A program made the position numbers and the translations under genes. Shown in pieces: positions 36,649 to 50,043 of a DNA stretch of 64,000 bases (positions within the stretch are counted from its first letter, which is position 1; each line of letters opens with the position of its first letter). Below the pieces are notes generated by a model. That model saw only the letters and a program-made list of their open reading frames with translations, did no database searches and was not told the origin of the DNA. Origin of the DNA: Candidatus Bathyarchaeia archaeon (lineage in GTDB: Bacteria; Patescibacteriota; Microgenomatia; PFEM01; JAFGMK01); the NCBI GenBank assembly GCA_035529595.1, contig DATKWK010000023.1, positions 78,517-142,516 on the forward strand. The letters run 5' to 3'.

Positions 36649-37959
36649 ATGATCAAACGAATGAAAATTTCTCCTTTTATGTTTAGTCGGGAAGAAAAGA
36701 TCAAGGGTAAAATCTTAATTTTATCTCAGGAAATTTACCCGCAAGTTTGTATTGGCGGATTAGGAAAGTTCGTTGCTGGAATCAGTCACGGTATGCAAGA
36801 CCTCGGTTGGGAAACAACTGTTTTCTTGCCCGAAAATCAAAATCCGGTTTATCTTCCCTATTATTTACCGGAAGCAAAAGCAAGAAGTAGAACCTTGGTA
36901 AAAAAAGCTTTGAGCTGGTGCTGCAATCACCTTTGGTGGCCAAATTGGCTTTGGGTTCAAGATTGGGAAGGTGCTTATCAGGCCGAAGTGTGGCGGCAGC
37001 AAGCGAGGGGAGTTTCTCAATCGGAAACTAAGATAATTTGGACAATTCACAGTCCGCTGACAACCGCCGGTGCAGGCTATAATTATGGTTACCAAGATTT
37101 TAACCAGCCAGATGAGCCGATTGATTGGGGTGATGATTTCTTTGATTTTGCCGCTTTGATTGAAAAAGGCATCTCCAACGTTGACTTAATCAGCACTGTT
37201 TCGTTTTCGTTTGCCAGGAAATTAACCAGGTGTGAATTATTTTCTCAGGCAGATCAGATTTGTGGGATTAATAATGGAATCGATAGTCGGGAATGGGACC
37301 CGTATCACGATAAACAAATTAGCTTTTGCCTTAAAGACAGCTGGCCGGAATTTAAGTTGGTCAACAAAAGAGTCCTTCAGAGAATTTTCGGCTTGCCGCA
37401 GAGGAATGAGCCGGTTTTTGCCTTTGTTTCCCGGTTAGTACCGCAAAAAGGTATCGATCTATTGATAGAAGTTTTACCTGGAATATTGGCTAAAAATCGG
37501 ATTCAGTTGATAGTTGTTGGCCAAGGCTTAACCAGGTACCAATCCTTTTTTGCCCGATTGAAATCCGATTTTCCACAAAAACTTGGCTTATGTCTCCAAT
37601 CAGAATTTCGATTGCCTCATCAAGTTTTTGCGGGTGCAGATTTTCTGATTTTGCCTTCATTTTCTGAACCGTTTGGTATTGTTGTTGCTGAGGCGCGCCA
37701 ATACGGAGTTATCCCAATAGTAAGCGACGTCGACGGCTTAGCAGATCAAGTTCGAAATGATATTGACGGCTTAACCTTTGAAACAGGTAACGTTAATTTA
37801 TTAGCCGGTAAAATCTATGAAGCATTGAGGCTTTTTGGTAGTTCGTCTTATTGGACTCTAAGTAGTAATGGCCGGAATCGAGTTGAGGACTGGCTAGAAA
37901 TTGCGGCACGATATGAGTTTTACTTGGCAGGAGCAGATCAGCAAAGGTATCCCTCTTGA
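36649..37959 (+). CDS. GT4-family (GT-B) glycosyltransferase
   Basis: N-terminal ...EIYPQVCIGGLGKFVAGIS... (glycogen-synthase-like G-rich loop) and C-terminal LPSFSEPFGIVVAEARQYGVIPIVSDVDGLADQV (E-x7-E motif region). Start at the first ATG after the topA stop. Confidence 0.7.
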   Translation: MIKRMKISPFMFSREEKIKGKILILSQEIYPQVCIGGLGKFVAGISHGMQDLGWETTVFLPENQNPVYLPYYLPEAKARSRTLVKKALSWCCNHLWWPNWLWVQDWEGAYQAEVWRQQARGVSQSETKIIWTIHSPLTTAGAGYNYGYQDFNQPDEPIDWGDDFFDFAALIEKGISNVDLISTVSFSFARKLTRCELFSQADQICGINNGIDSREWDPYHDKQISFCLKDSWPEFKLVNKRVLQRIFGLPQRNEPVFAFVSRLVPQKGIDLLIEVLPGILAKNRIQLIVVGQGLTRYQSFFARLKSDFPQKLGLCLQSEFRLPHQVFAGADFLILPSFSEPFGIVVAEARQYGVIPIVSDVDGLADQVRNDIDGLTFETGNVNLLAGKIYEALRLFGSSSYWTLSSNGRNRVEDWLEIAARYEFYLAGADQQRYPS

Positions 37960-40204
37960 AGGCGGTCTCAGAAAACGTTGTTTTCTGGTTAAAGAAGGCC
38001 GTGAGAAACTGGTTTATTCACTTTGGCCCACGGACAGTTTGTCCGAAGAAAAAATTAAGCAGACGATTAAATGGGAGCTGATGGCAAGGGCGAGGGGTGT
38101 ACCGGCTAGGCATTGGCAGAAGCTAGACGGATCTTGGCTTAAAAAAATAAGATTTGAGAGGAAAATATATTGGTTAGGCATTGGGAATTACCTTCCGGGG
38201 CAAATATATTATGATTTAGCGCCGGGACAACTTTACGCTGCCGGTCGAAAGTTAGCTTTTCTTCATCAGTCTTTCCGCCGCTTAAATAATAAAACACTTC
38301 TCCATTTAGATTTTGCTCGGGGCAATTTGCTTTTTAATAAAAAAAAAGAAGTCGCCGGTATTTTAGATTTTGAAGAAGCCGGCTGGGGGATAGTCGAGAA
38401 AGATTTAGCTTGCAGTCTTTCTTTTTTCGTTGTTGATAACGGGCAATTGGCAGATAATCAAATTTGGGGAAATTTTTTAAAGGGCTATACTGATGGAGGT
38501 GGCGATTTTAATTATGATAAGATAAAAAGATTCTATTTTCATTATTTAAAAGTGAGAGCAGAGGAAAACAATCAGAAAGCCTTTTTGTTGCTGGCTCGTG
38601 AGCGCCTAAGGAAAATTCAAGAGCGAATTAAAGCTAAACTGCTGAAAAAAACTGACCTAGAACAGTTTTTGAAAAAACATCAGGACAAGAGAATAGTTTT
38701 TTTAGTGGGAGCGTTTGAGCTGCTTCATTGGGGACACCTTAAATTCTTGAAAAAAGCTAAATCTTTAGGAGATACTCTGGTAGTTGGAGTTGCTTCTGAC
38801 CAGTCAAGGCGGCGCCTCAAAGGAGAACCCTATCCTCTTATCAGTGAACGGACGCGAGCAGAAACATTGGCCTATTTTGACAGTGTCGATGCGGTGGTAA
38901 TAGTGACTGAGGATTCGGTAAGGAAAGAACTCCAATATCTAAAACCAAAGATTTTCTATGCGATTGCTGACGATTGGAAACAGGGAATTAGAAAAATGGA
39001 GGAAGCGGAATCCGTCAGAAGCTGGGGTGGAAAAGTTATCAAGACTCTTTATCTTTCCCCACGAATTTCTTCTTCTCAAATGACTGAAAAAGTCGCTCTT
39101 TTAAAAATAAAACAGGTTCTCTTTGGTAAAAAAATCCGTCAGCCAATGCTTAAACTGAGAAAAAATCGGCGAATTCCGAAAGAAGTCAAATTTCCAGACC
39201 TGGAAAAACTCGAAAAAAGACTGCATCAGCAAAATAAAACAATCGTTTTTGCGAGCTTAACAGCTGACCTTTTTCATTTAGGGCATGCTCGGTTTATTCA
39301 AAAAGCTAAAAGTTTAGCTGATTTTTTGGTAATTGGCGTTCCCAGCAATGAAAGCGTCACTGCCTTAAAAGGGCCTGGCCGGCCGATAATCGACGAGAGA
39401 GCGAGAGCACTGGTTTTATCAGAACTTAACTTTGTTAATAAAGTGGTTATATTTGATGAGCGGACGGTCTTTGGCTGTTTACAGAAACTCAAACCGGATG
39501 TTTTTTTTACAGTTAAGGAAGATTGGAATACCGGTTTGCTTAGCTCGCCTGAAGCACATCTGGTAAGATCTTATGGCGGTAAAATTGCCCGCTCTGAAAG
39601 GCAAGCGCCCTATCTCTCTGCTTCAAAAATGATTGACAAGGCGGCCGGAGAAATAATCCAAAAAAAGTTTTCCGCTTTAATTAAAACCGCGGCAGAAACG
39701 CCGATTCTTGATGCCGATGGTTTTGATCCTCATCATCCGCAAGTTCAGTTAGCAGCTAGGGAGAAAGGTTTTTATGATCAAGTTTTAGCTTCGGTAGCTA
39801 AAAGAGGTAAATGTGTTTTTTGTGACCTTAAAGAAAAATATATCATTGCTTCTCGGGATGGTATTGTTTTAACGGTAGCCCTTTTCCCCTATATTGACGG
39901 CCACCTTTTGGTTATTCCTCGCCGGCACCTATTGACTATTGACCAGCTTAACCCTGGAGAAATTAGCATGATTTTTGATATGGTGGGGAGAGGTAAAAAG
40001 ATTTTGAATCAAGGGTTGGGGATAGAAAATTATTGGATTATTCTTCGGGAAGGGAATGGCATTAAAGCTGGAAAGTCGGTTGATCATTTACATTTTCATC
40101 TGATTCCTTACAATTCGACTGTGGTTAAGATGGGCAATAAAAAGTTAACTTCAACGCCGCTTAAGATGGCTCAAACTTTAAAAAAACAATGGAAAAATAT
40201 TTAA
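37901..40204 (+). CDS. Four-domain fusion: choline/ethanolamine-kinase-like (APH fold) + tandem TagD/ECT-like cytidylyltransferase domains + C-terminal HIT domain
   Basis: Kinase-like: ...HLDFARGNLLFNKKKEVAGILDFEEAGWGIVEKDLA (Brenner/APH motif region). CT domain 1: VFLVGAFELLHWGHLKFLKKAK...ADDWK...RISSSQM (HxGH, RTEGISTT-like). CT domain 2: IVFASLTADLFHLGHARFIQKAK...KEDWN...LSASKM. HIT: DHLHFHLIP (HxHxHxx). Confidence 0.65.
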   Translation: MRHDMSFTWQEQISKGIPLEGGLRKRCFLVKEGREKLVYSLWPTDSLSEEKIKQTIKWELMARARGVPARHWQKLDGSWLKKIRFERKIYWLGIGNYLPGQIYYDLAPGQLYAAGRKLAFLHQSFRRLNNKTLLHLDFARGNLLFNKKKEVAGILDFEEAGWGIVEKDLACSLSFFVVDNGQLADNQIWGNFLKGYTDGGGDFNYDKIKRFYFHYLKVRAEENNQKAFLLLARERLRKIQERIKAKLLKKTDLEQFLKKHQDKRIVFLVGAFELLHWGHLKFLKKAKSLGDTLVVGVASDQSRRRLKGEPYPLISERTRAETLAYFDSVDAVVIVTEDSVRKELQYLKPKIFYAIADDWKQGIRKMEEAESVRSWGGKVIKTLYLSPRISSSQMTEKVALLKIKQVLFGKKIRQPMLKLRKNRRIPKEVKFPDLEKLEKRLHQQNKTIVFASLTADLFHLGHARFIQKAKSLADFLVIGVPSNESVTALKGPGRPIIDERARALVLSELNFVNKVVIFDERTVFGCLQKLKPDVFFTVKEDWNTGLLSSPEAHLVRSYGGKIARSERQAPYLSASKMIDKAAGEIIQKKFSALIKTAAETPILDADGFDPHHPQVQLAAREKGFYDQVLASVAKRGKCVFCDLKEKYIIASRDGIVLTVALFPYIDGHLLVIPRRHLLTIDQLNPGEISMIFDMVGRGKKILNQGLGIENYWIILREGNGIKAGKSVDHLHFHLIPYNSTVVKMGNKKLTSTPLKMAQTLKKQWKNI

Positions 40205-40662
40205 GATTAGCTATAAATGAGGCAGAGAAATCCGGTTGCCGCCGAGCTAAACGGGGTGCCGTGATTATCAAGAATGGTCAAATAGTAAGTCGAGCCCATA
40301 ACCTGGTTTTTCCCAAAAACAGCTTTTGCGAGAAACGCGGTTGCCTGCGGGACAAGTTACGTTTGGGTTTAGGTCAAAATCTTGAACGCTGCCGCTCAAT
40401 TCATGCTGAAGCTTTGGCAATTTGCCGGGCGGCCAGCAAAGGAATTTCTTTGTCTAAAACAGAAATCTTTATGACCGGCCAGCCGTGTATCAACTGCGCT
40501 AAGTTAATCTATGCTTCGGGGGTCAAAAAAGTTTATTATCTTGATGTTTACGGAGATCGAACCGGGGCTATCTTCTTAAACAAAATGGGCGTCTTATGCC
40601 AACGTACCGGAATAGAAAATGATCAGCCTAAAAGGAGAATCAGGGATATTACCAGCCAATAA
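40189..40662 (+). CDS. dCMP deaminase (ComEB-like cytidine/deoxycytidylate deaminase zinc-binding)
   Basis: HAEALAI (HAE) ... TGQPCINCAKLI (PCxxC). Confidence 0.8.
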   Translation: MEKYLRLAINEAEKSGCRRAKRGAVIIKNGQIVSRAHNLVFPKNSFCEKRGCLRDKLRLGLGQNLERCRSIHAEALAICRAASKGISLSKTEIFMTGQPCINCAKLIYASGVKKVYYLDVYGDRTGAIFLNKMGVLCQRTGIENDQPKRRIRDITSQ

Positions 40663-43484: not shown

Positions 43485-44801
43485 ATGATTGATAAGGAAG
43501 TTTTTGATCTTATTCGTAAGGAAGAGAAGCGCCAAGAAGAGGGCTTGGAGCTGATTCCCTCTGAAAATTATGTCTCCAAAGAAGTCCGGCAAGCCTTGGG
43601 CTGCATTTTGACTAACAAATACTCCGAGGGTTATCCGCGCAAGCGCTATTATGGCGGTAACGAAGTTGTTGACGAAATCGAAAGCTTAGCTATAAAACGG
43701 GCTAAAAGACTTTTCAAAGTGCCCCACGTTAATGTTCAGCCCTATTCCGGATCGCCGGCTAACTGGGCGGTTCATGGTGCTCTTTGCCAACCGGGAGACA
43801 TAATTCTTTCACAACATCTCTCCCACGGCGGCCATCTCAGCATGGGCCAGGAAGCTAATCTTTCATCAAAATTTTTCCATGCTTATTATTATCATTTAAC
43901 TGCTGACGGCAGTGTTGATTTTAAGGAGTTGGAGAGTCTGGCCAAAAAAATTAAGCCCAAAGTTATTTGGTCTGGCGGAACTGCCTATACTATAAAGTTT
44001 AACTTCTTAAAATACGCCCAGATAGCCGATCAGGTAGGTGCTTATTTTGTGGCCGATATTGCTCATATTGCCGGTTTAATCATCGGCGGTATTCACCCCA
44101 GCCCGGTTCGTTATGCTCATCTGGTGACCACTACTACCCATAAAACCCTGCGCGGTCCGCGGGGAGGGATGATTATGGTGACCAAAAAAGGTTTGAAAAC
44201 TGATCCTGATTTAGCACGAAAAATTGACCGGGCGGTTTTTCCCGGCCTCCAAGGTGGGCCCCACGACAATCAGATAGCTGCTTTAGCCATTGCCCTAAAG
44301 GAGGCGTCGACTGTTAAATTCAAGGAATACACGCGGCAGGTTGTTGTTAATGCCCGAGCATTAGCGCGGATTCTCAAGAGAGCTGACTTAAAGTTAATTG
44401 GAAACGGTACCGAAAACCACATGATTTGGGTCGATTTAACCGATCAAGGAATTGATGGTTGGCAAGTTCAAGTTGCCTTAGACGTTCTCGGAATCTCAAT
44501 CAATCGCCAGACGATTCCTTTTGATCTGCGTCCGGCTTATTACCCAAGCGGTATCCGACTGGGTACGCCGGCAGTGACTACCCGGGGAATGAAAGAGGCG
44601 CAAATGAGACTGATCGGCGATTGGATTATCCAGGTAATTAATATTGTCCGAGAGATTAAATGCGTGGGGTTGGGAAGCTCCGACCGGGAGGAAGACCAGG
44701 CGGCGCGGAAAGAATTTAAGGAAAAAATTAAATTGCATCCCCATCTTCGGCATCTGCAAAAAGAAGTCAAGTCTTTTTGTTTAAACTTCCCGATTCCTTA
44801 A
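43485..44801 (+). CDS. glyA: Serine hydroxymethyltransferase
   Basis: LELIPSENYVSKEV..., TTTTHKTLRGPRGGMI (PLP-Lys region). Confidence 0.9.
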   Translation: MIDKEVFDLIRKEEKRQEEGLELIPSENYVSKEVRQALGCILTNKYSEGYPRKRYYGGNEVVDEIESLAIKRAKRLFKVPHVNVQPYSGSPANWAVHGALCQPGDIILSQHLSHGGHLSMGQEANLSSKFFHAYYYHLTADGSVDFKELESLAKKIKPKVIWSGGTAYTIKFNFLKYAQIADQVGAYFVADIAHIAGLIIGGIHPSPVRYAHLVTTTTHKTLRGPRGGMIMVTKKGLKTDPDLARKIDRAVFPGLQGGPHDNQIAALAIALKEASTVKFKEYTRQVVVNARALARILKRADLKLIGNGTENHMIWVDLTDQGIDGWQVQVALDVLGISINRQTIPFDLRPAYYPSGIRLGTPAVTTRGMKEAQMRLIGDWIIQVINIVREIKCVGLGSSDREEDQAARKEFKEKIKLHPHLRHLQKEVKSFCLNFPIP

Positions 44802-44809
44802 ACAATCCT

Positions 44810-45664
44810 ATGGTATATATTTTTGACGGTAAAAAAGAAGCCGGGGAAATTAAAGCTTCTTTAAAAAAGAAGATTTTTAAGCTTAAAAAAAAGCCGGTTT
44901 TGGAACTGGTTCTGGTCGGCGATGATTCGGTTAATGAGAGTTACTTAACACAACTGCAAAAAATAGCCCTAGAGTTAGAAGTTAGGCTTTCTATTCATCG
45001 ATTTGGAAACTGTGTCAGGTGGGAAAAAATGGCAGAATATTTTACCAGGAAAAATAATAATGAAGAGATTAAGGGGATTTTGGTCCAAATTTCACCCAGT
45101 TGTTCTCTTTTTAGTAAACGGGAGGAGGTTATTAATCTGCTAAAGCCGGAGAAAGACAGCGACTTTTTGGGAGAAATTTTTTTCAAGGATAAAAATCGTC
45201 TCCCCTCAGTTTGTCAGGCGGTACTTATTGCGATTAATAAGGCCAGTGAGGTTTTAAGCTTTCATTCGCAATGGGTAAATACTTTAGTTATCGGTAATCA
45301 GGGTTTTTGGGGCAGAAGAATTCAGCAAACACTAATTAATCAAGGATTTGAAAACGTTGCCGGTATTGACAAAGAGACAATCGATCTTAAACTTGCTTGT
45401 ACTGAAGCTGATATTATTATTTCCTGTACCGGTCAGCCGGGATTAATTAAGAGACCAATGGTCAAAAAAGGAGCGGTGGTTATTGATGTTGGTGTTTCTA
45501 TTCCGGAGCACCGGTATAATTCCGGTCCCAGAGCGGATCGGGTAATTGGAGATGTTGACTTTAGATCAGTTTCACGGGTGGCCGGCTTTATCACCCCTGT
45601 CCCCGGCGGCATCGGGCCATTGAGTACGATTTTGGCGTTTAAGAATTTAGTGGGAAGAAATTAA
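44810..45664 (+). CDS. folD: Bifunctional 5,10-methylene-THF dehydrogenase/cyclohydrolase
   Basis: N-terminal ...LVLVGDDSVNESYL...; C-terminal ADIIISCTGQPGLIK...GAVVIDVGV...GDVDF...ITPVPGGIGPLSTILAFKN. Start set at the MVYIFDG ATG just after the glyA stop. Confidence 0.8.
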   Translation: MVYIFDGKKEAGEIKASLKKKIFKLKKKPVLELVLVGDDSVNESYLTQLQKIALELEVRLSIHRFGNCVRWEKMAEYFTRKNNNEEIKGILVQISPSCSLFSKREEVINLLKPEKDSDFLGEIFFKDKNRLPSVCQAVLIAINKASEVLSFHSQWVNTLVIGNQGFWGRRIQQTLINQGFENVAGIDKETIDLKLACTEADIIISCTGQPGLIKRPMVKKGAVVIDVGVSIPEHRYNSGPRADRVIGDVDFRSVSRVAGFITPVPGGIGPLSTILAFKNLVGRN

Positions 45665-45761
45665 GTTAAAATAAAGCGAATTTAAACTCCTGCCCTGTCT
45701 ATAATTATAGAAAGAAATACCTTTTTTATAAAATTTTAAAGAAGAAGACATAATTACCGGG

Positions 45762-46253
45762 ATGGTAGAGAGAGATAATGGAGAGACAGAAGCAGTAGTT
45801 GGGAGAAGGGTTCGTTTGGCTGAAGATATATTTTGGGCTTGGGCACAAAGTGATCTTTACGGTGAGACTGTGTATCTGACCTTAACTGACGGACAGCGTC
45901 TCGCCCTTGATATTGAATATGGTCTTTGGGAGGACATACTGGATGATGTTTTGGATTGGGAAAGAGAAGAAGATGATGAAGATGAGTGGAAAACACTTGC
46001 TGAACGGGAAGGAATTGAAGCTAAATTACACGAGTTGGGTTTGAATAAAGATTTTTATTTTTTTTTCATTATTAGTGATCCGACGAGAGAGGAAGGAGAA
46101 GTTGGTCATTGTTTTGGCATTTATTCTGATCGGCAAACGGTTGGGGTTTTAAAAAGATTAGAAAAAAAATATGATTATTGTTTTGGAATCGATAAAGTGA
46201 TTCCTCGTGATATAGTAGATGCCTTTTGGCAAGCTTTAGCTAGCGCTGACTAG
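45762..46253 (+). CDS. Acidic hypothetical protein (163 aa), paralog of 47782-48237
   Basis: Shares LTLTDGQRLALDIEYGLWEDILDDVL / LALTDGRQLALEIGYVSWDDMLYSVL and C-terminal ...GIDKVIPRDIVDAFWQAL / ...GVDGVIPDEIALALEIAL blocks with the paralog. Confidence 0.5.
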   Translation: MVERDNGETEAVVGRRVRLAEDIFWAWAQSDLYGETVYLTLTDGQRLALDIEYGLWEDILDDVLDWEREEDDEDEWKTLAEREGIEAKLHELGLNKDFYFFFIISDPTREEGEVGHCFGIYSDRQTVGVLKRLEKKYDYCFGIDKVIPRDIVDAFWQALASAD

Positions 46254-46335
46254 AAAAATCTGCTCGAAAAAAAGTTGAATAGCCTTCATTAATTTAACCT
46301 GCCCAAAGAAAAAGTTAATAGTTTCTTAAATAAAC

Positions 46336-47745
46336 ATGCCAAGAAGTCTGGAGTTGCGTGATTTGTTTTGGCGGCAAGAATTTTTATATCCTAATGGAGA
46401 CTGCTTTGACTGGTTTGGAATAGGACCGTTAAGGCACAATGATGAGTCTGTTATAGCCGTTGAAACGCCTTTTGACACCGGAAGGCGATCAATCCTTGAT
46501 CTGCCGGTGGCGGCTGATTTGCATGCTTTACAAGAGGGATTAGATAGTTTTAAGCCAAGTCGGGAAGTATTAGGGAGGATAGCGAAACTTTACGGGCAGA
46601 TATTTGAACATTTAGAGAAAAACGGCCACGAAGTTCAACTAAAAACTGATTTATGTGCAAGATTATGGGATCTATACCATCAAATACATTACGAAGATTA
46701 TGCTTTTTCATACTCGGGCGCTCTTGGGTGTAGTACTTCTTATGCTTGGGGTTTAGTCCATGCTTGTGCTCAAAGGCGAGCCTTAATTAGATCAGCCGGT
46801 TTGAAAGACGATCAACTGGCAAAATTAGTCATTGATGAGTGGCTTCTTTACGAAAGACTTCATTTGCCTCCTTCAGCTGATGATGAAACTCAGGCTTGTG
46901 GAATTTTAGGCGGCCGAAGAGATAATTTAGCTCTTTGGCACCAAGCTTGGTTGCCGTCTATTTATTTTGACCAGACTTTAGGCCTTTATCGGGTTGAAGG
47001 ACTGAGTATTACTCAGGGTTTAATCGAAAGATGCTATCGAAATTTTCTGCCGATCCCCTGGATTGGTTTTGAAGGTCTTGACAAAAGCGGTAAAGATACC
47101 CAGGCTGATATTTTGGTGAAGTTTTTGGAGGATGTTTTAGGTTGGCAGGTTCTTCCTCAGAATTTTCCGACAAATTTAAAAATTGGACAGATGATTAAAG
47201 CGGCCTTAGGAGGCGAGATTACTTTTGATAACCGGGCGATGCAAAAACTATTTCAAGCTGATCGGGCTGATTGGCGCTGGCAGGCAGAAATGGGTAAAAT
47301 AACCGAAGGTCGAGCTTGTTTGGTCACCAAAAGACATTCGGCCTCCGGTATTGCTTATGGGGCTGAAGATTATGCCAGTTTACTAAGATATGTTGTTGAG
47401 CATTTCATGCTCGGCTGGGCCGATTTAACGATTTTTATTGATGTTCCTGAAGATGAATGTTTAAGAAGACTTAAAGGCCGGCCGGAAATGTACGAGAGGA
47501 GAGAAAAATTGGCAGGAGCAAGGACGAACTATTTGGCTCTTTTAGATATCTTACCGCATTTTGTCCGGCTTGAGGGGATGAATTCGGATGGTAGTCCGAA
47601 ATCGCCGGAGGTTATTTTCCGAGAAACAGTGGGAATCCTGGTTTCACAGATGCCTGCTGAGAAATTAACCCCAAAACAAAAAGAGAAAATAGTTGGTAGT
47701 CTTGATAGTTGGATTGCTGATAATAAAGACCGGTTCGTAGTTTAA
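46336..47745 (+). CDS. Two-domain protein: unknown N-terminal domain (about 250 aa) + C-terminal thymidylate-kinase-like domain with atypical P-loop (GLDKSGKD)
   Basis: IGFEGLDKSGKDTQADIL (cf. Tmk FEGIDGAGKTTQ) and downstream FQADRADW (cf. Tmk DR motif). Confidence 0.5.
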   Translation: MPRSLELRDLFWRQEFLYPNGDCFDWFGIGPLRHNDESVIAVETPFDTGRRSILDLPVAADLHALQEGLDSFKPSREVLGRIAKLYGQIFEHLEKNGHEVQLKTDLCARLWDLYHQIHYEDYAFSYSGALGCSTSYAWGLVHACAQRRALIRSAGLKDDQLAKLVIDEWLLYERLHLPPSADDETQACGILGGRRDNLALWHQAWLPSIYFDQTLGLYRVEGLSITQGLIERCYRNFLPIPWIGFEGLDKSGKDTQADILVKFLEDVLGWQVLPQNFPTNLKIGQMIKAALGGEITFDNRAMQKLFQADRADWRWQAEMGKITEGRACLVTKRHSASGIAYGAEDYASLLRYVVEHFMLGWADLTIFIDVPEDECLRRLKGRPEMYERREKLAGARTNYLALLDILPHFVRLEGMNSDGSPKSPEVIFRETVGILVSQMPAEKLTPKQKEKIVGSLDSWIADNKDRFVV

Positions 47746-47781
47746 TATTACTGTACTGATTAATATTTTTTATCATTATGG

Positions 47782-48237
47782 ATGATTTTTGAAAACGACC
47801 GGACAAATTATGATAAGTTGTCTACTGAAAGAAGAATACCCTTAGCCCAATACATGTTTCATATGTTAGCCCGAGATGGATTAACCGAAGAGATCTTTCC
47901 ATTAGCTTTAACTGACGGACGACAACTTGCTCTTGAGATTGGATATGTTAGTTGGGATGATATGCTGTATTCTGTTTTACAAGCGGGTGAGGAACGAGAT
48001 AGGCTTCTGATACAACTAGCTGAACTTGGTTTAGATCAACAATTTGTCTATTTAATTTTCGTGCAAGCTGCGCCAGAGGGAAGAGAACCACAGGAGGCAA
48101 CTTGTTACATCGATCGAGAAACCTTTAACGTTTTACATCCTTTTGAAAAAGAATATCAGTGGGATTTTGGAGTTGATGGGGTAATTCCTGATGAGATAGC
48201 TTTGGCTTTGGAAATAGCCTTGCAGTCCCGAATTTAA
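47782..48237 (+). CDS. Acidic hypothetical protein (151 aa), paralog of 45762-46253
   Basis: See paralog entry. Confidence 0.5.
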   Translation: MIFENDRTNYDKLSTERRIPLAQYMFHMLARDGLTEEIFPLALTDGRQLALEIGYVSWDDMLYSVLQAGEERDRLLIQLAELGLDQQFVYLIFVQAAPEGREPQEATCYIDRETFNVLHPFEKEYQWDFGVDGVIPDEIALALEIALQSRI

Positions 48238-48339
48238 TTCTGAGTTTAATGAAGCATAAATCTTTTTGCTACCATGACCTAGCGTCTGCTAGCAAAACAA
48301 ACTGGTAGTTTATAACCTAAGCGATATTATTTAACTGAA

Positions 48340-49224
48340 GTGGCCAAACAAGAAGCCGAATCAAGATTTGATTTCGTACCTAGCCCAGAAATTCTTTATC
48401 TCGAGAGCCCGGAGCAACTTCAGGACAGAGAGATTTTTGTCTATCGGGTACATGATCCTGAACCGATGTTTGCGCGCCAGGTAGTGGAGAGGCTTTGGGG
48501 AATAGCAGGTGAAGTAAATCCAGGAACTGAAATGCCTATTAAATTTTACCGGAGAATGCCTCATGGAATTAAAAGCGATTCGGTTCATGACGAGTTCAAT
48601 ATATCTTTGGCAGTGCCGATTGAAAATCAATTAGCGGAAGCATTAGGAATTTGTCAGGGATTAGCTTTTATTGATCGGAAGAATTCCGATCTTCCGTGGA
48701 ATTTAGTGGTTGAAAGCCCGGTGATCGCCTCAAGCGAAGGAGACGCTAGTCATTTTTTATTGATTGATCTTGATGGTAAGGTTAATAGCCTAGATCAGTT
48801 CGTAATCGAAAATAGTTTTAAAGCAGCCGGTTTTTCCGGGTTTTTATTGGTTAGCGGCGCCTCTTATCATTACTGGTCTGATTTTACTGTTTCGGCGGAT
48901 AGTCTGCCGGCTTTTTTGGGGACTGCGGCTGCGGCTTTAACACCGCAAGTTTCCGATAATGATCGTTTATTGTCGATTGCTTTTCGAATGTCAGTTTGCC
49001 AAAATTTGGCAGAAGGTCAGGAATTAGCTTCTCAAATTCTTAACCGGAACAGCGCTCTTTTTATTCCTTCTTCAGGCAGTGGTTTTAAAAGCGGGAGTTT
49101 TTTTGATTTTCGCTGGGCTTGTCACCGTTTATTAGCCGGGAAATTAGCTTTGAGGGTAAGTTCGGACCGATATCCGCAAGAACCGATATTGATTTCCGAA
49201 TTAACGGCCAGAAGCTTTTCATGA
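48340..49224 (+). CDS. Hypothetical protein (294 aa)
   Basis: No recognisable motif. Follows the acidic paralog in the same way the 469-aa protein does. Confidence 0.4.
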   Translation: MAKQEAESRFDFVPSPEILYLESPEQLQDREIFVYRVHDPEPMFARQVVERLWGIAGEVNPGTEMPIKFYRRMPHGIKSDSVHDEFNISLAVPIENQLAEALGICQGLAFIDRKNSDLPWNLVVESPVIASSEGDASHFLLIDLDGKVNSLDQFVIENSFKAAGFSGFLLVSGASYHYWSDFTVSADSLPAFLGTAAAALTPQVSDNDRLLSIAFRMSVCQNLAEGQELASQILNRNSALFIPSSGSGFKSGSFFDFRWACHRLLAGKLALRVSSDRYPQEPILISELTARSFS

Positions 49225-49342: not shown

Positions 49343-49425
49343 CGGTTACGACGAAAACAGATTATGGTTAATATTCTCTTTATTTGATAAGATAAATAAT
49401 TAGAGTTTACTTGGAGGGCAGGCAG

Positions 49426-50043
49426 ATGAAACCAAATCCTTATCCCGGGTTTTTTGTTGTTATCGAGGGCCTTGACGGTTGCGGAGCTTCAAGCCAAATT
49501 GAGCCGGTCGCCGAAGCTTTGCGGATCGGGAATAAGGAGGTAACCACTACCAGTGAACCGACTGATAATATTTTAGGAGGTCTGCTTCGCGGTGCTTTGA
49601 CTGGTGTCTACCGCTTGCCGCCTGCTTCTCTTCAGCTTCTTTTTGTGGCCGATCGTCTTCATCATTTAGACCGTTTAATCGAGCCGGTTCTAAAAAAAGG
49701 CGAACTGGTTTTATGCGATCGTTATTTTTGGTCAACTATTGCTTATGGTTCGATTGATTTGGATTTCAACTGGTTGTTGGAAATTAACCAATACTGTTTA
49801 CTGCCTGATCTTTCGATATTTCTTAAAGTTGACCCCTTAACCTGTTTTCAACAAATCAAAAAAAGCCGGTTTGGATTAGAGCTTTTTGAAAACCGCCAGA
49901 AACTGGACCAAGTCTGGCGGATCTATGAAAAACTGGCTCGAAAATATCCCAGAGAGATTGTTTTTGTTGATGGTGAACGAGTTTCTTCTGAGGTTAAAAG
50001 TAACATTCTAAAAGCGATAAAACACCATCCGAAATTCTCCTGA
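49426..50043 (+). CDS. Thymidylate kinase-like protein with degenerate Walker A (GLDGCGASSQ; P-loop Lys and Thr absent)
   Basis: FFVVIEGLDGCGASSQ (cf. Tmk IEGLEGAGKTTQ); LLFVADRLHH (DR motif); CDRYFWSTIAYG (cf. DRYxxSSxAYQ). ATG 49426 preferred (RBS GGAGGG 7 nt upstream) over the TTG at 49411. Confidence 0.55.
   Translation: MKPNPYPGFFVVIEGLDGCGASSQIEPVAEALRIGNKEVTTTSEPTDNILGGLLRGALTGVYRLPPASLQLLFVADRLHHLDRLIEPVLKKGELVLCDRYFWSTIAYGSIDLDFNWLLEINQYCLLPDLSIFLKVDPLTCFQQIKKSRFGLELFENRQKLDQVWRIYEKLARKYPREIVFVDGERVSSEVKSNILKAIKHHPKFS

Follow-up and report, generated by a model that had tools for sequence, protein, structure and literature searches.

The window analysed here, a stretch of 64,000 nucleotides (nt) of contig DATKWK010000023.1 (assembly GCA_035529595.1), contains on its forward strand a gene in which a small-molecule kinase, two nucleotidyltransferase (NT) domains and a HIT domain are joined in a single polypeptide. 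The polypeptide represents a fusion, specific to a Shapirobacteria-type lineage, of a kinase-NT-HIT string with one NT or two that is conserved in Patescibacteria and is placed immediately upstream of dCMP deaminase (dCD), to which it is often fused, within a thymidylate operon comprising thymidylate synthase (TS), DHFR, Tmk, SHMT and FolD. Because the module sits directly before dCMP deaminase and thymidylate synthase across the group, the four-domain protein most likely helps to supply the thymine building block of DNA, rather than lipid head groups or sugars. The interest of the finding lies less in the fusion than in the widespread, uncharacterised module which it reveals at the entrance of thymidylate synthesis in Patescibacteria, part of the candidate phyla radiation and a major bacterial group.

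The genomic context was determined by scanning GTDB species-representative genomes with an alignment of the HIT subfamily, which gave 133 confirmed matches on distinct contigs, of which 80 loci were kept. These loci were chosen solely by the HIT subtype and some of them end at contig edges; the counts given below are conditional on the presence of HIT. Home-made hidden Markov models were used to annotate 89 related loci, including the 80 species loci, and Pfam spot checks agree with the result. Nearly all of the 80 loci look like Patescibacteria (Shapirobacteria, Saccharimonadia, WWE3, Collier-, Woese-, Ames- and Dojkabacteria, Parcubacteria), with some automated labels being doubtful. The following neighbours were recorded:

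77/80 loci: NT gene adjacent or fused to the HIT gene
75/80 loci, and 73/74 with enough downstream sequence: dCMP deaminase directly downstream of HIT or fused to it
67/80 loci: any thymidylate-cycle gene within 6 kb
at least 54/80 loci: thymidylate synthase (TS-like or canonical ThyA) within 5 kb downstream
at least 48/80 loci: APH-family kinase upstream or fused
8/80 loci: GlgA-like glycosyltransferase (GT) upstream

The overlap with the dCMP deaminase gene was treated as incidental in the initial annotation of this DNA, yet no other link of the module is as strong or as well conserved: the deaminase adjoins HIT or is fused to it in 73 of the 74 assessable loci, and several of the fusions are independent. 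The typical order of genes is DHFR-kinase-NT-HIT-dCD-ThyA in Saccharibacteria and DprA-TopA-NT+NT-HIT-dCD-TS-like in WWE3 and others. The thymidylate operon sometimes directly follows a ribonucleotide reductase acting at the level of nucleoside triphosphates (NTP), as in locus L057, where the order is NrdD-NrdG-kinase-NT+NT-HIT-dCD-TS-like, and in L083, where a TK gene stands between NrdG and the kinase. Tmk often adjoins the module. Four full-length homologues keep the block GT-four-domain gene-dCD-TS-like, and their outer flanks differ. In viral contigs, the module was not found.

The modular nature of the protein is visible in the way its parts are separated and recombined. When 1.84 billion representatives were searched exhaustively by profile, all four domains were found together in only two representatives at the 50%-identity level; the natural pieces recovered were kinase+NT1, NT2+HIT, NT1+NT2+HIT, NT pairs in tandem and HIT of this subtype standing alone, along with fusions of the HIT subtype to NUDIX or dCMP deaminase. 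Split forms break cleanly between NT1 and NT2 and keep the order GT, kinase-NT1, NT2-HIT, dCD, TS-like. The independent fusions comprise HIT+dCD, HIT+NUDIX, NT+HIT, kinase+NT, ATP-cone+NT, ATP-cone+NT+NUDIX+dCD and kinase+NT+NT+HIT+dCD, the last being an 884-aa protein (P0026, locus L007) in which the fusion is extended through the deaminase. ATP-cone domains are fused to NT in two lineages. In one small single-protein family (P0105, P0206-P0210; positions 7001-8683 of L008 and 647-2359 of L009), an ATP-cone is followed by an NT similar to HldE domain II, a NUDIX domain and dCMP deaminase, and a TS-like gene comes immediately after; the ATP-cone suggests control by ATP/dATP. Locus L008 has the same order as the window, PBP2 ... 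DprA-TopA-X-TS-like-dNK/TK-Tmk, in which X is this ATP-cone+NT+NUDIX+dCD gene, and no HIT gene was found in the locus. The slot X occupies the position that is filled in the window by the GT, the four-domain gene and dCMP deaminase. Therefore, the conserved content of the slot is an NT, a nucleotide pyrophosphatase and dCMP deaminase.

The gene and its domains are as follows:

37901..40204, forward strand: four-domain open reading frame, uninterrupted, 767 aa from TTG 37901 or 763 aa from ATG 37913, stop codon at 40202-40204
37913..38638, forward strand: domain 1, APH-fold small-molecule kinase with HxDxxxxN (HLDFARGN), the metal-binding Asp of DFE and an N-terminal GGxRK loop
38660..39127, forward strand: domain 2, NT1, an HxGH nucleotidyltransferase with ELLHWGH, ADDW and ISSS
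39188..39682, forward strand: domain 3, NT2, an HxGH nucleotidyltransferase with DLFHLGH, KEDWN and LSAS
39698..40201, forward strand: domain 4, HIT of a distinctive subfamily with the N-terminal Q..AR..G.Y helix, CVFCDLK, PYIDGHLLVIPRRH and HLHFHLIP

The start position is ambiguous by four codons. The sequence GAGGA is located 11 nt before TTG 37901, and the ATG start at 37913 gives a protein beginning with MSFTWQ, which agrees with the N-termini of homologues and is equivalent to the start assigned by NCBI to the near-identical HUW21646.1. The gene shares 47-59 nt with the upstream glycosyltransferase gene, which ends with its stop codon at 37959, and 16 nt with the dCMP deaminase gene, which starts at 40189. 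The four-domain anatomy and both overlaps had been proposed in the initial annotation, and both are real: Pfam gives 51.7 bits for APH, 97.9 bits summed over two CTP_transf_like domains and 45.4 bits for HIT, all above the gathering cut-offs, and every motif quoted at that time was found (HLDFARGNLLF, ILDFEEAGWG, ELLHWGH, DLFHLGH, ADDW/KEDW, ISSSQM/LSASKM, DHLHFHLIP). The full-length AlphaFold model has a mean pLDDT of 85.5. All four domains occur together in about 40 homologue clusters with 38-65% identity, whose named members are Shapirobacteria or unclassified Patescibacteria. Among 31 aligned homologues, HxDxxxxN and the Asp of DFE in the kinase, HxGH in both NTs, and CxxC and HxHxH in the HIT domain are invariant. 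Because about 40 clusters share the architecture and the catalytic residues are invariant in the 31 homologues, the gene is neither a chance reading frame nor a frameshift artefact. The initial annotation had allowed that a frameshift check might resolve the domains into separate genes; frameshift and mis-assembly were both ruled out as the source of the long frame, since this architecture recurs in the clusters and the junction of NT1 and NT2 is the only point at which split forms are divided.

In public databases, the protein is named merely "adenylyltransferase/cytidyltransferase family protein". A protein of the same 90%-identity cluster (P0324, HUW21646.1) is labelled "Candidatus Bathyarchaeia archaeon", and this label looks wrong; the window encodes bacterial PBP2, DprA, TopA and DnaX. 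Several related loci (L011, L012, L015, L026 and others) have a gene content typical of Shapirobacteria or Saccharibacteria, and their labels "uncultured Gammaproteobacteria", "Pseudomonadales" or "Clostridia" also look wrong.

The HIT domain defines the subfamily by which the loci were recognised. It scores 45.4 bits against PF01230 (cut-off 21.5), and the alignment of the subfamily, which is almost confined to Patescibacteria, has as its signature the N-terminal Q..AR..G.Y helix, CVFCDLK and PYxDGHLLIIPRRH. The three histidines of the HIT motif are invariant among the 31 full-length homologues; in the wider subfamily this holds for the first two only, the third being replaced now and then. 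The structures found by Foldseek to be nearest are the Ap4A phosphorylase Rv2613c, the Ap4A phosphorylase of M. avium and Fhit. The features in common with this branch are HxHxHxx, the fold (E ~1e-7) and an N/A-x-x-P-x-x-x-G-H substrate loop that lacks the ribose-binding Asp of Hint; the differences are the low identity (~20%) and the subfamily's own N-terminal helix, CxxC and conserved C-terminal tail. The ATP adenylyltransferase model NF052622 gives only 34.8 bits against a cut-off of 290. Judged by sequence motifs and fold, the domain appears to be of the Fhit/Ap4A-phosphorylase type, a branch whose known substrates are compounds of the NMP-phosphate-X form.

This resemblance is the basis of an alternative in which the module would turn over Ap4A-like dinucleoside polyphosphates or signal nucleotides that report or regulate the supply of deoxynucleotides, or in which a HIT phosphorylase and NT pyrophosphorolysis would work as a reverse pair converting (d)NDP and pyrophosphate (PPi) to (d)NTP. 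Apart from the nearness to Rv2613c and Fhit, it is consistent with the replacement or accompaniment of HIT by NUDIX, the other classical ApnA-hydrolase family, with the ATP-cone regulatory domains on NT in two lineages and with the frequent adjacency of Tmk. However, no NT of the HldE/TagD type is known to make ApnN, this alternative gives no role to the conserved kinase, and the HIT+dCD fusions favour a metabolic link over a signalling one. We consider this alternative improbable.

The two NT domains have been compared with several nucleotidyltransferase families. NT2 is the most conserved of the two, has many invariant columns in the 31-homologue alignment and is found in all lineages; the single-NT genes of other Patescibacteria score as NT2. 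Scanned alone, each domain scores best against HldE domain II (TIGR02199, rfaE_dom_II), with 115.9 bits for NT1 and 108.3 bits for NT2 against a cut-off of 181.5, which is exceeded only by the two-domain sum (215.9 bits). HldC is the best single-domain solved relative (5x9q, 55 bits with NT1; structural match with a TM score of 0.86-0.87 and 30% identity), and the HxGH motif and the HldE-like blocks LKGxxRP and VDxVVxFxExT are present in both domains. The TagD model (TIGR01518, cut-off 165.4) gives 45.9 bits for NT1 and 22.2 bits for NT2, far below HldE domain II, and the earlier assignment to the TagD type was therefore abandoned and TagD identity ruled out. A true HldE/ADP-heptose enzyme was likewise ruled out. 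The per-domain scores are below the cut-off, and no heptose-pathway genes (the PfkB kinase HldA, GmhA, GmhB) were seen in the neighbourhood of the window or in the Pfam-annotated related loci, the custom model set used for the 89 loci having contained no such models. Thus, the earlier reservation that the NTs might be of the RfaE type with known fused partners applies in so far as HldE domain II is the best-scoring family, but not as to the partner, since the PfkB kinase is absent. Further differences from HldE domain II and HldC are that the NTs stand here in tandem, fused to an APH kinase and HIT, and that the GGDY of HldC is replaced by a (D/E)DW block, as in the CTP-using TagD and Fom1. 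In HldC, the Phe of the C-terminal F-E-x-x-x-S-T-T motif reportedly stacks on the adenine of ATP (PMC7993394). The equivalent position is occupied by Tyr in NT1 and has no aromatic residue in NT2 (ER(Q/M)APY(I/L)SAS). The hints of nucleotide specificity given by these motifs are weak and conflicting.

Tandem NT domains had been described in the initial annotation as a hallmark of eukaryotic CTP:phosphoethanolamine cytidylyltransferase (ECT), which is correct for the arrangement but not for the family of each domain, HldE domain II being the better match. In the full-length model, the NT pair superposes on human ECT (4xsv/3elb; Foldseek E 1e-13, TM 0.73 of target, 344 columns), which is the best structural match of the whole pair, and an HxGH motif is present in each half of an ECT-type pseudo-dimer formed by two cytidylyltransferase-fold domains of one chain. 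The arrangement in the model thus appears ECT-like, and the resemblance is one of domain arrangement only. Identity to ECT (Pcyt2) is about 20%, with about 30 bits per domain; ECT is not fused to a kinase or HIT, and the context here is thymidylate rather than phospholipid synthesis. A distant relative from the representative search (P0101, 683 aa) fuses a CDP-alcohol phosphatidyltransferase, two tandem cytidylyltransferase-like domains and a GT2 glycosyltransferase, which shows that tandem NTs of this superfamily are used elsewhere for genuine CDP-alcohol chemistry.

Another alternative is a cofactor salvage of the FAD, NAD or CoA type, in which a vitamin kinase, an adenylyltransferase (RibL-, NadM- or PPAT-like) and a pyrophosphatase would act together, by analogy with NadR and NadM-Nudix. 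Weak NCBIfam matches to PPAT, FAD synthase, NadR and NadM-Nudix models and the presence of the archaeal RfaE-II-like protein 3glv among the structural matches point in this direction. These NCBIfam matches reach 20-50 bits, though, in comparison with 108-116 for HldE domain II, nothing in the context is related to cofactors and the coupling to the deaminase and thymidylate synthase would be unexplained, which makes such a salvage highly improbable.

The kinase domain belongs to the APH family (PF01636, 51.7 bits, cut-off 23.2), with the catalytic loop HxDxxxxN and the metal-binding Asp (equivalent of DFG/DFE) placed in a bilobal kinase fold. The scores for individual kinases include amicoumacin kinase 19.0, N-acetylhexosamine 1-kinase 18.3, aminopropanol kinase 18.2, choline/ethanolamine kinases 14-15, and the Bud32 and RIO protein kinases below the latter. 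The nearest kinases are homoserine and aminopropanol kinases, with a likeness also to choline and ethanolamine kinases. A protein of 1069 aa from the representative search (P0133) has 15 tandem repeats, each of which matches no more than some 50 positions of the profile, in the N-lobe part of the kinase (84-137); probably it is a repeat protein that resembles the kinase by chance or through its composition.

The initial annotation had combined these features into a Kennedy-like pathway leading from a free alcohol to a CDP-activated head group. Spelt out, the kinase would act on an amino-alcohol or polyol (ethanolamine, choline, glycerol) and the tandem NT would make a CDP-alcohol for envelope lipid or teichoic acid; the released CMP or dCMP would be recycled by the deaminase. 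The conversion of an alcohol to phospho-alcohol and NDP-alcohol is still the simplest reading of kinase and NT taken together, and the affinities of the kinase, the superposition on human ECT, the DW block common to TagD and Fom1 and the fusion in P0101 all agree with it. Against it, the TagD scores are poor, a HIT hydrolase in cis would destroy the activated head group, and no CDP-alcohol phosphatidyltransferase, teichoic-acid or lipid gene was seen in the Pfam-annotated loci, although no search aimed at them was made across all 89 loci. A Kennedy-like role is thus quite unlikely.

A sugar-directed alternative depends mainly on the gene upstream of the four-domain gene:

36649..37959, forward strand: GlgA-like GT-B glycosyltransferase, its stop overlapping the start of the four-domain gene

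This enzyme had been described as a generic GT4 glycosyltransferase coupled to the four-domain protein. It is better called GlgA-like, as its best solved relative is E. coli GlgA (107 bits) and it scores 201.9 bits against the NCBIfam glgA model TIGR02095, below the cut-off of 328.45. The ADP-glucose-binding residues of GlgA are K15 (of KTGGL, a catalytically important Lys), R300, K305, Y355 (adenine-stacking) and E377. In the alignment with E. coli GlgA the equivalents of R300, K305 and E377 are kept, K15 is replaced by Cys ("CIGGLG") and Y355 by Ser. Because of these two replacements, the sugar-nucleotide donor may not be ADP-glucose. As to coupling, the GT is a lineage-specific neighbour and not a conserved partner. 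The eight species loci in which it stands upstream are only Shapirobacteria-type (L010-L017), and among 17 Shapirobacteria-type loci it is directly upstream with overlapping frames in 14; in L004 an ABC gene stands between it and the module, and L026 and L033 lack it.

According to this alternative, the module would be a salvage of NDP-sugars similar to ADP-glucose or ADP-heptose for the GlgA-like GT: an anomeric kinase would give sugar-1-phosphate, the NT an ADP-sugar and the GT a glucan or glycoconjugate, HIT being a phosphorylase or proofreader and the thymidylate genes being present by synteny only. The closeness of the NTs to HldE domain II and HldC, the acceptance of beta-glucose-1-P by HldC (PMC7993394) and the overlapping frames in 14/17 Shapirobacteria-type loci are in its favour. 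On the other hand, the GT is not beside the module in 72/80 species loci, including the fairly close relative L026, it lacks K15 and Y355 of the ADP-glucose site, no GlgB, GlgC or GlgP was found among the Pfam-scanned part of the window's reading frames, and neither the HIT+dCD and NT+NUDIX+dCD fusions nor the 73/74 adjacency of dCMP deaminase would be explained. The salvage of ADP-sugars is accordingly judged unlikely.

The proximity of a TS-like gene and a GT also raised the question of a DNA hypermodification cluster, of the type known from T-even phages, in which a TS homologue, a GT and NDP-sugar genes are combined (PMC13326640). Such a cluster is not favoured, as TS has DHFR, SHMT, FolD and Tmk beside it, the TS-like protein gives way to canonical ThyA in Saccharibacteria, the GT is limited to one lineage and the module is missing from viral contigs.

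For the preferred role in thymidylate supply, the following mechanism may be proposed. The kinase would phosphorylate X, a small compound with a hydroxyl group (in all likelihood a sugar or amino-alcohol), and the NT would condense the resulting X-phosphate with a nucleoside triphosphate, giving a nucleoside diphosphate derivative (NDP-X) and PPi. The histidine of the HIT domain, a part taken by NUDIX in one sister lineage, would then attack the alpha-phosphate of NDP-X, which would release a nucleoside monophosphate and regenerate X-phosphate. The nucleotide is most likely one of deoxycytidine because the pyrophosphatase is physically coupled, by repeated fusion, to dCMP deaminase. The release of dCMP in particular is suggested by these pyrophosphatase-dCD fusions and by the position of the module between NTP-level reductases and dCMP deaminase in some loci. 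The net reaction would be dCTP to dCMP and PPi, followed by dCMP to dUMP to dTMP, where the reductases deliver deoxynucleoside triphosphates. In Shapirobacteria, this NDP-X may in addition serve the duplicated NT1 and the GlgA-like GT as a donor of glycosyl groups. Two further observations would fit this mechanism, namely that the HIT domain is, by its predicted structure, closest to enzymes cleaving NMP-phosphate-X bonds (Rv2613c, Fhit), and that the NT motifs include the DW block of the CTP-using TagD and Fom1, with no equivalent of the adenine-stacking Phe of HldC in NT2.

Several points weigh against this mechanism. The data point to no particular nucleotide (C, A or U; ribo or deoxy) and to no particular substrate, and the best curated match of the NTs is an adenylyltransferase. 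A cycle of synthesis and subsequent hydrolysis is unusual, and NUDIX or MazG could hydrolyse dCTP directly. The HIT domain could, to judge from its closest structural match, be a phosphorylase and not a hydrolase. HIT and NUDIX occur in one polypeptide in four loci and are therefore not always simple alternatives, a kinase was not seen near the module in about one-third of the loci, and the L024 cluster also carries a Dcd/Dut-like gene. Finally, where genomes are small and densely packed with genes, neighbours may in part be adjacent through inherited synteny; the occurrence of the string in several classes, with two types of thymidylate synthase, variable flanks and at least seven fusion architectures, makes it hard to invoke inherited synteny alone. 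Taken together, the kinase-NT-HIT string, its placement in the thymidylate operon and the cleavage of NDP-X as its mechanism form a reading that we hold with somewhat less than even confidence. A broader and more doubtful proposal is that Patescibacteria have a nearly universal, carrier-mediated route from dCTP (or dUTP) to the monophosphate, in which the kinase would provide a phospho-acceptor, the NT would load (d)CMP on it and HIT or NUDIX would release the nucleotide to dCMP deaminase and thymidylate synthase, under ATP-cone (ATP/dATP) control in some lineages.

If the proposed route is correct, it would be a new enzymatic solution to the supply of dCMP or dUMP where ribonucleotide reduction takes place on triphosphates. 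The gap from dCTP to dCMP, between NTP-level reductases and dCMP deaminase, would be filled by a new type of nucleotide-pool enzyme, and the 767-aa protein would perform the whole carrier-mediated route on one chain. If the route is wrong, the module still marks a conserved, uncharacterised step in the thymidylate metabolism of a large section of the bacteria. Patescibacteria have minimal genomes and are salvage-dependent, and the presence of the module in at least 133 species genomes of many lineages indicates that it is probably important for DNA precursors. The fused Shapirobacteria protein, with the whole module on one chain, is convenient for biochemistry. The domain families themselves are well known; in the full-text literature, no description was found of the architecture, of the kinase-NT-HIT-dCD cluster or of the partnership of this combination with dCMP deaminase and thymidylate synthase.

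Downstream of the four-domain gene, the window continues with dCMP deaminase and then with a thymidylate/one-carbon island of about 10 kb, which contains TS-like, dNK-like, SHMT, FolD, two Tmk-type genes and FTCD_C and extends to about 50668:

40189..40662, forward strand: dCMP deaminase (ComEB-like), the conserved downstream partner, Pfam dCMP_cyt_deam_1 69.6 bits
40690..42126, forward strand: thymidylate-synthase-like protein, next gene of the conserved string (also L001 9735-11174 and L008 8680-10146)
42300-43385, forward strand: dNK-like kinase, 361 aa, kinase domain from about residue 122 after a long unannotated N-terminal extension
43485-44801, forward strand: SHMT, part of the thymidylate/one-carbon island
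44732-45661, forward strand: FolD, part of the thymidylate/one-carbon island
46330-47742, forward strand: thymidylate-kinase-like protein, 471 aa, kinase domain from about residue 247 after a long unannotated N-terminal extension
48316-49221, forward strand: protein with an archaeo-eukaryotic-primase-like domain, 302 aa, PF24387 38 bits, inside the island
49396-50040: Tmk of normal size, 215 aa

The TS-like protein of about 480 aa is unusual in consisting of three parts, an MtrA-like N-terminal domain, the TS core and a pterin-binding C-terminal domain (DUF4346). For the core, the methanogen-type TIGR03283 is the nearest model, with 111.7 bits against a cut-off of 174.55. This type is conserved in many Patescibacteria loci, and canonical ThyA takes the same position in Saccharibacteria. 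The primase-like gene is flanked by two reading frames (45732-46250 and 47764-48234) that have no Pfam match. In Saccharibacteria, Dojkabacteria and Woesebacteria, the dCMP deaminase following HIT is about 320-340 aa long, with an N-terminal extension of about 180-230 residues without a Pfam match (L078 8449-9471, L060 8465-9433, L063 8923-9882, L030 8318-9322).

Ribonucleotide reductases near the module are of two classes. A class III NrdD with an ATP-cone, together with NrdG, lies directly upstream of the module in L057 (2847-5768) and also, with TK intervening, in L083, and a class II reductase with a PduO-type cobalamin adenosyltransferase is present in L007 (1-1874), the adenosyltransferase being found in L003 (1-262) as well. 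The class II reductase, the adenosyltransferase and the match to aminopropanol kinase had suggested a CobU-like cobamide salvage, which was dropped because such genes are near the module in few loci.

Compared with known systems, the first half of the proposed route resembles NahK/GlmU, AmgK/MurU, LicA/LicC and FKP, in which a kinase of the APH fold or another fold makes a phospho-alcohol or sugar-1-phosphate that is then activated by a nucleotidyltransferase. Those systems use the NTP_transferase (GlmU/LicC) fold, unlike the HxGH domains described here, and have neither a HIT partner nor a link to dCMP deaminase. In its proposed position in the pathway, the module corresponds to the dCTPase gp56 of phage T4, human DCTPP1 and E. 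coli NudI, which provide dCMP or dUMP for the deaminase and thymidylate synthase; among dCTP-to-dCMP supply enzymes, NUDIX takes the proposed slot in the sister fusion ATP-cone+NT+NUDIX+dCD. The difference lies in the chemistry: gp56, DCTPP1 and NudI are single-step NTP pyrophosphohydrolases of the dUTPase, MazG and NUDIX folds, whereas the route suggested for the Patescibacteria module would proceed in two steps through NDP-X, on an acceptor made by the kinase.

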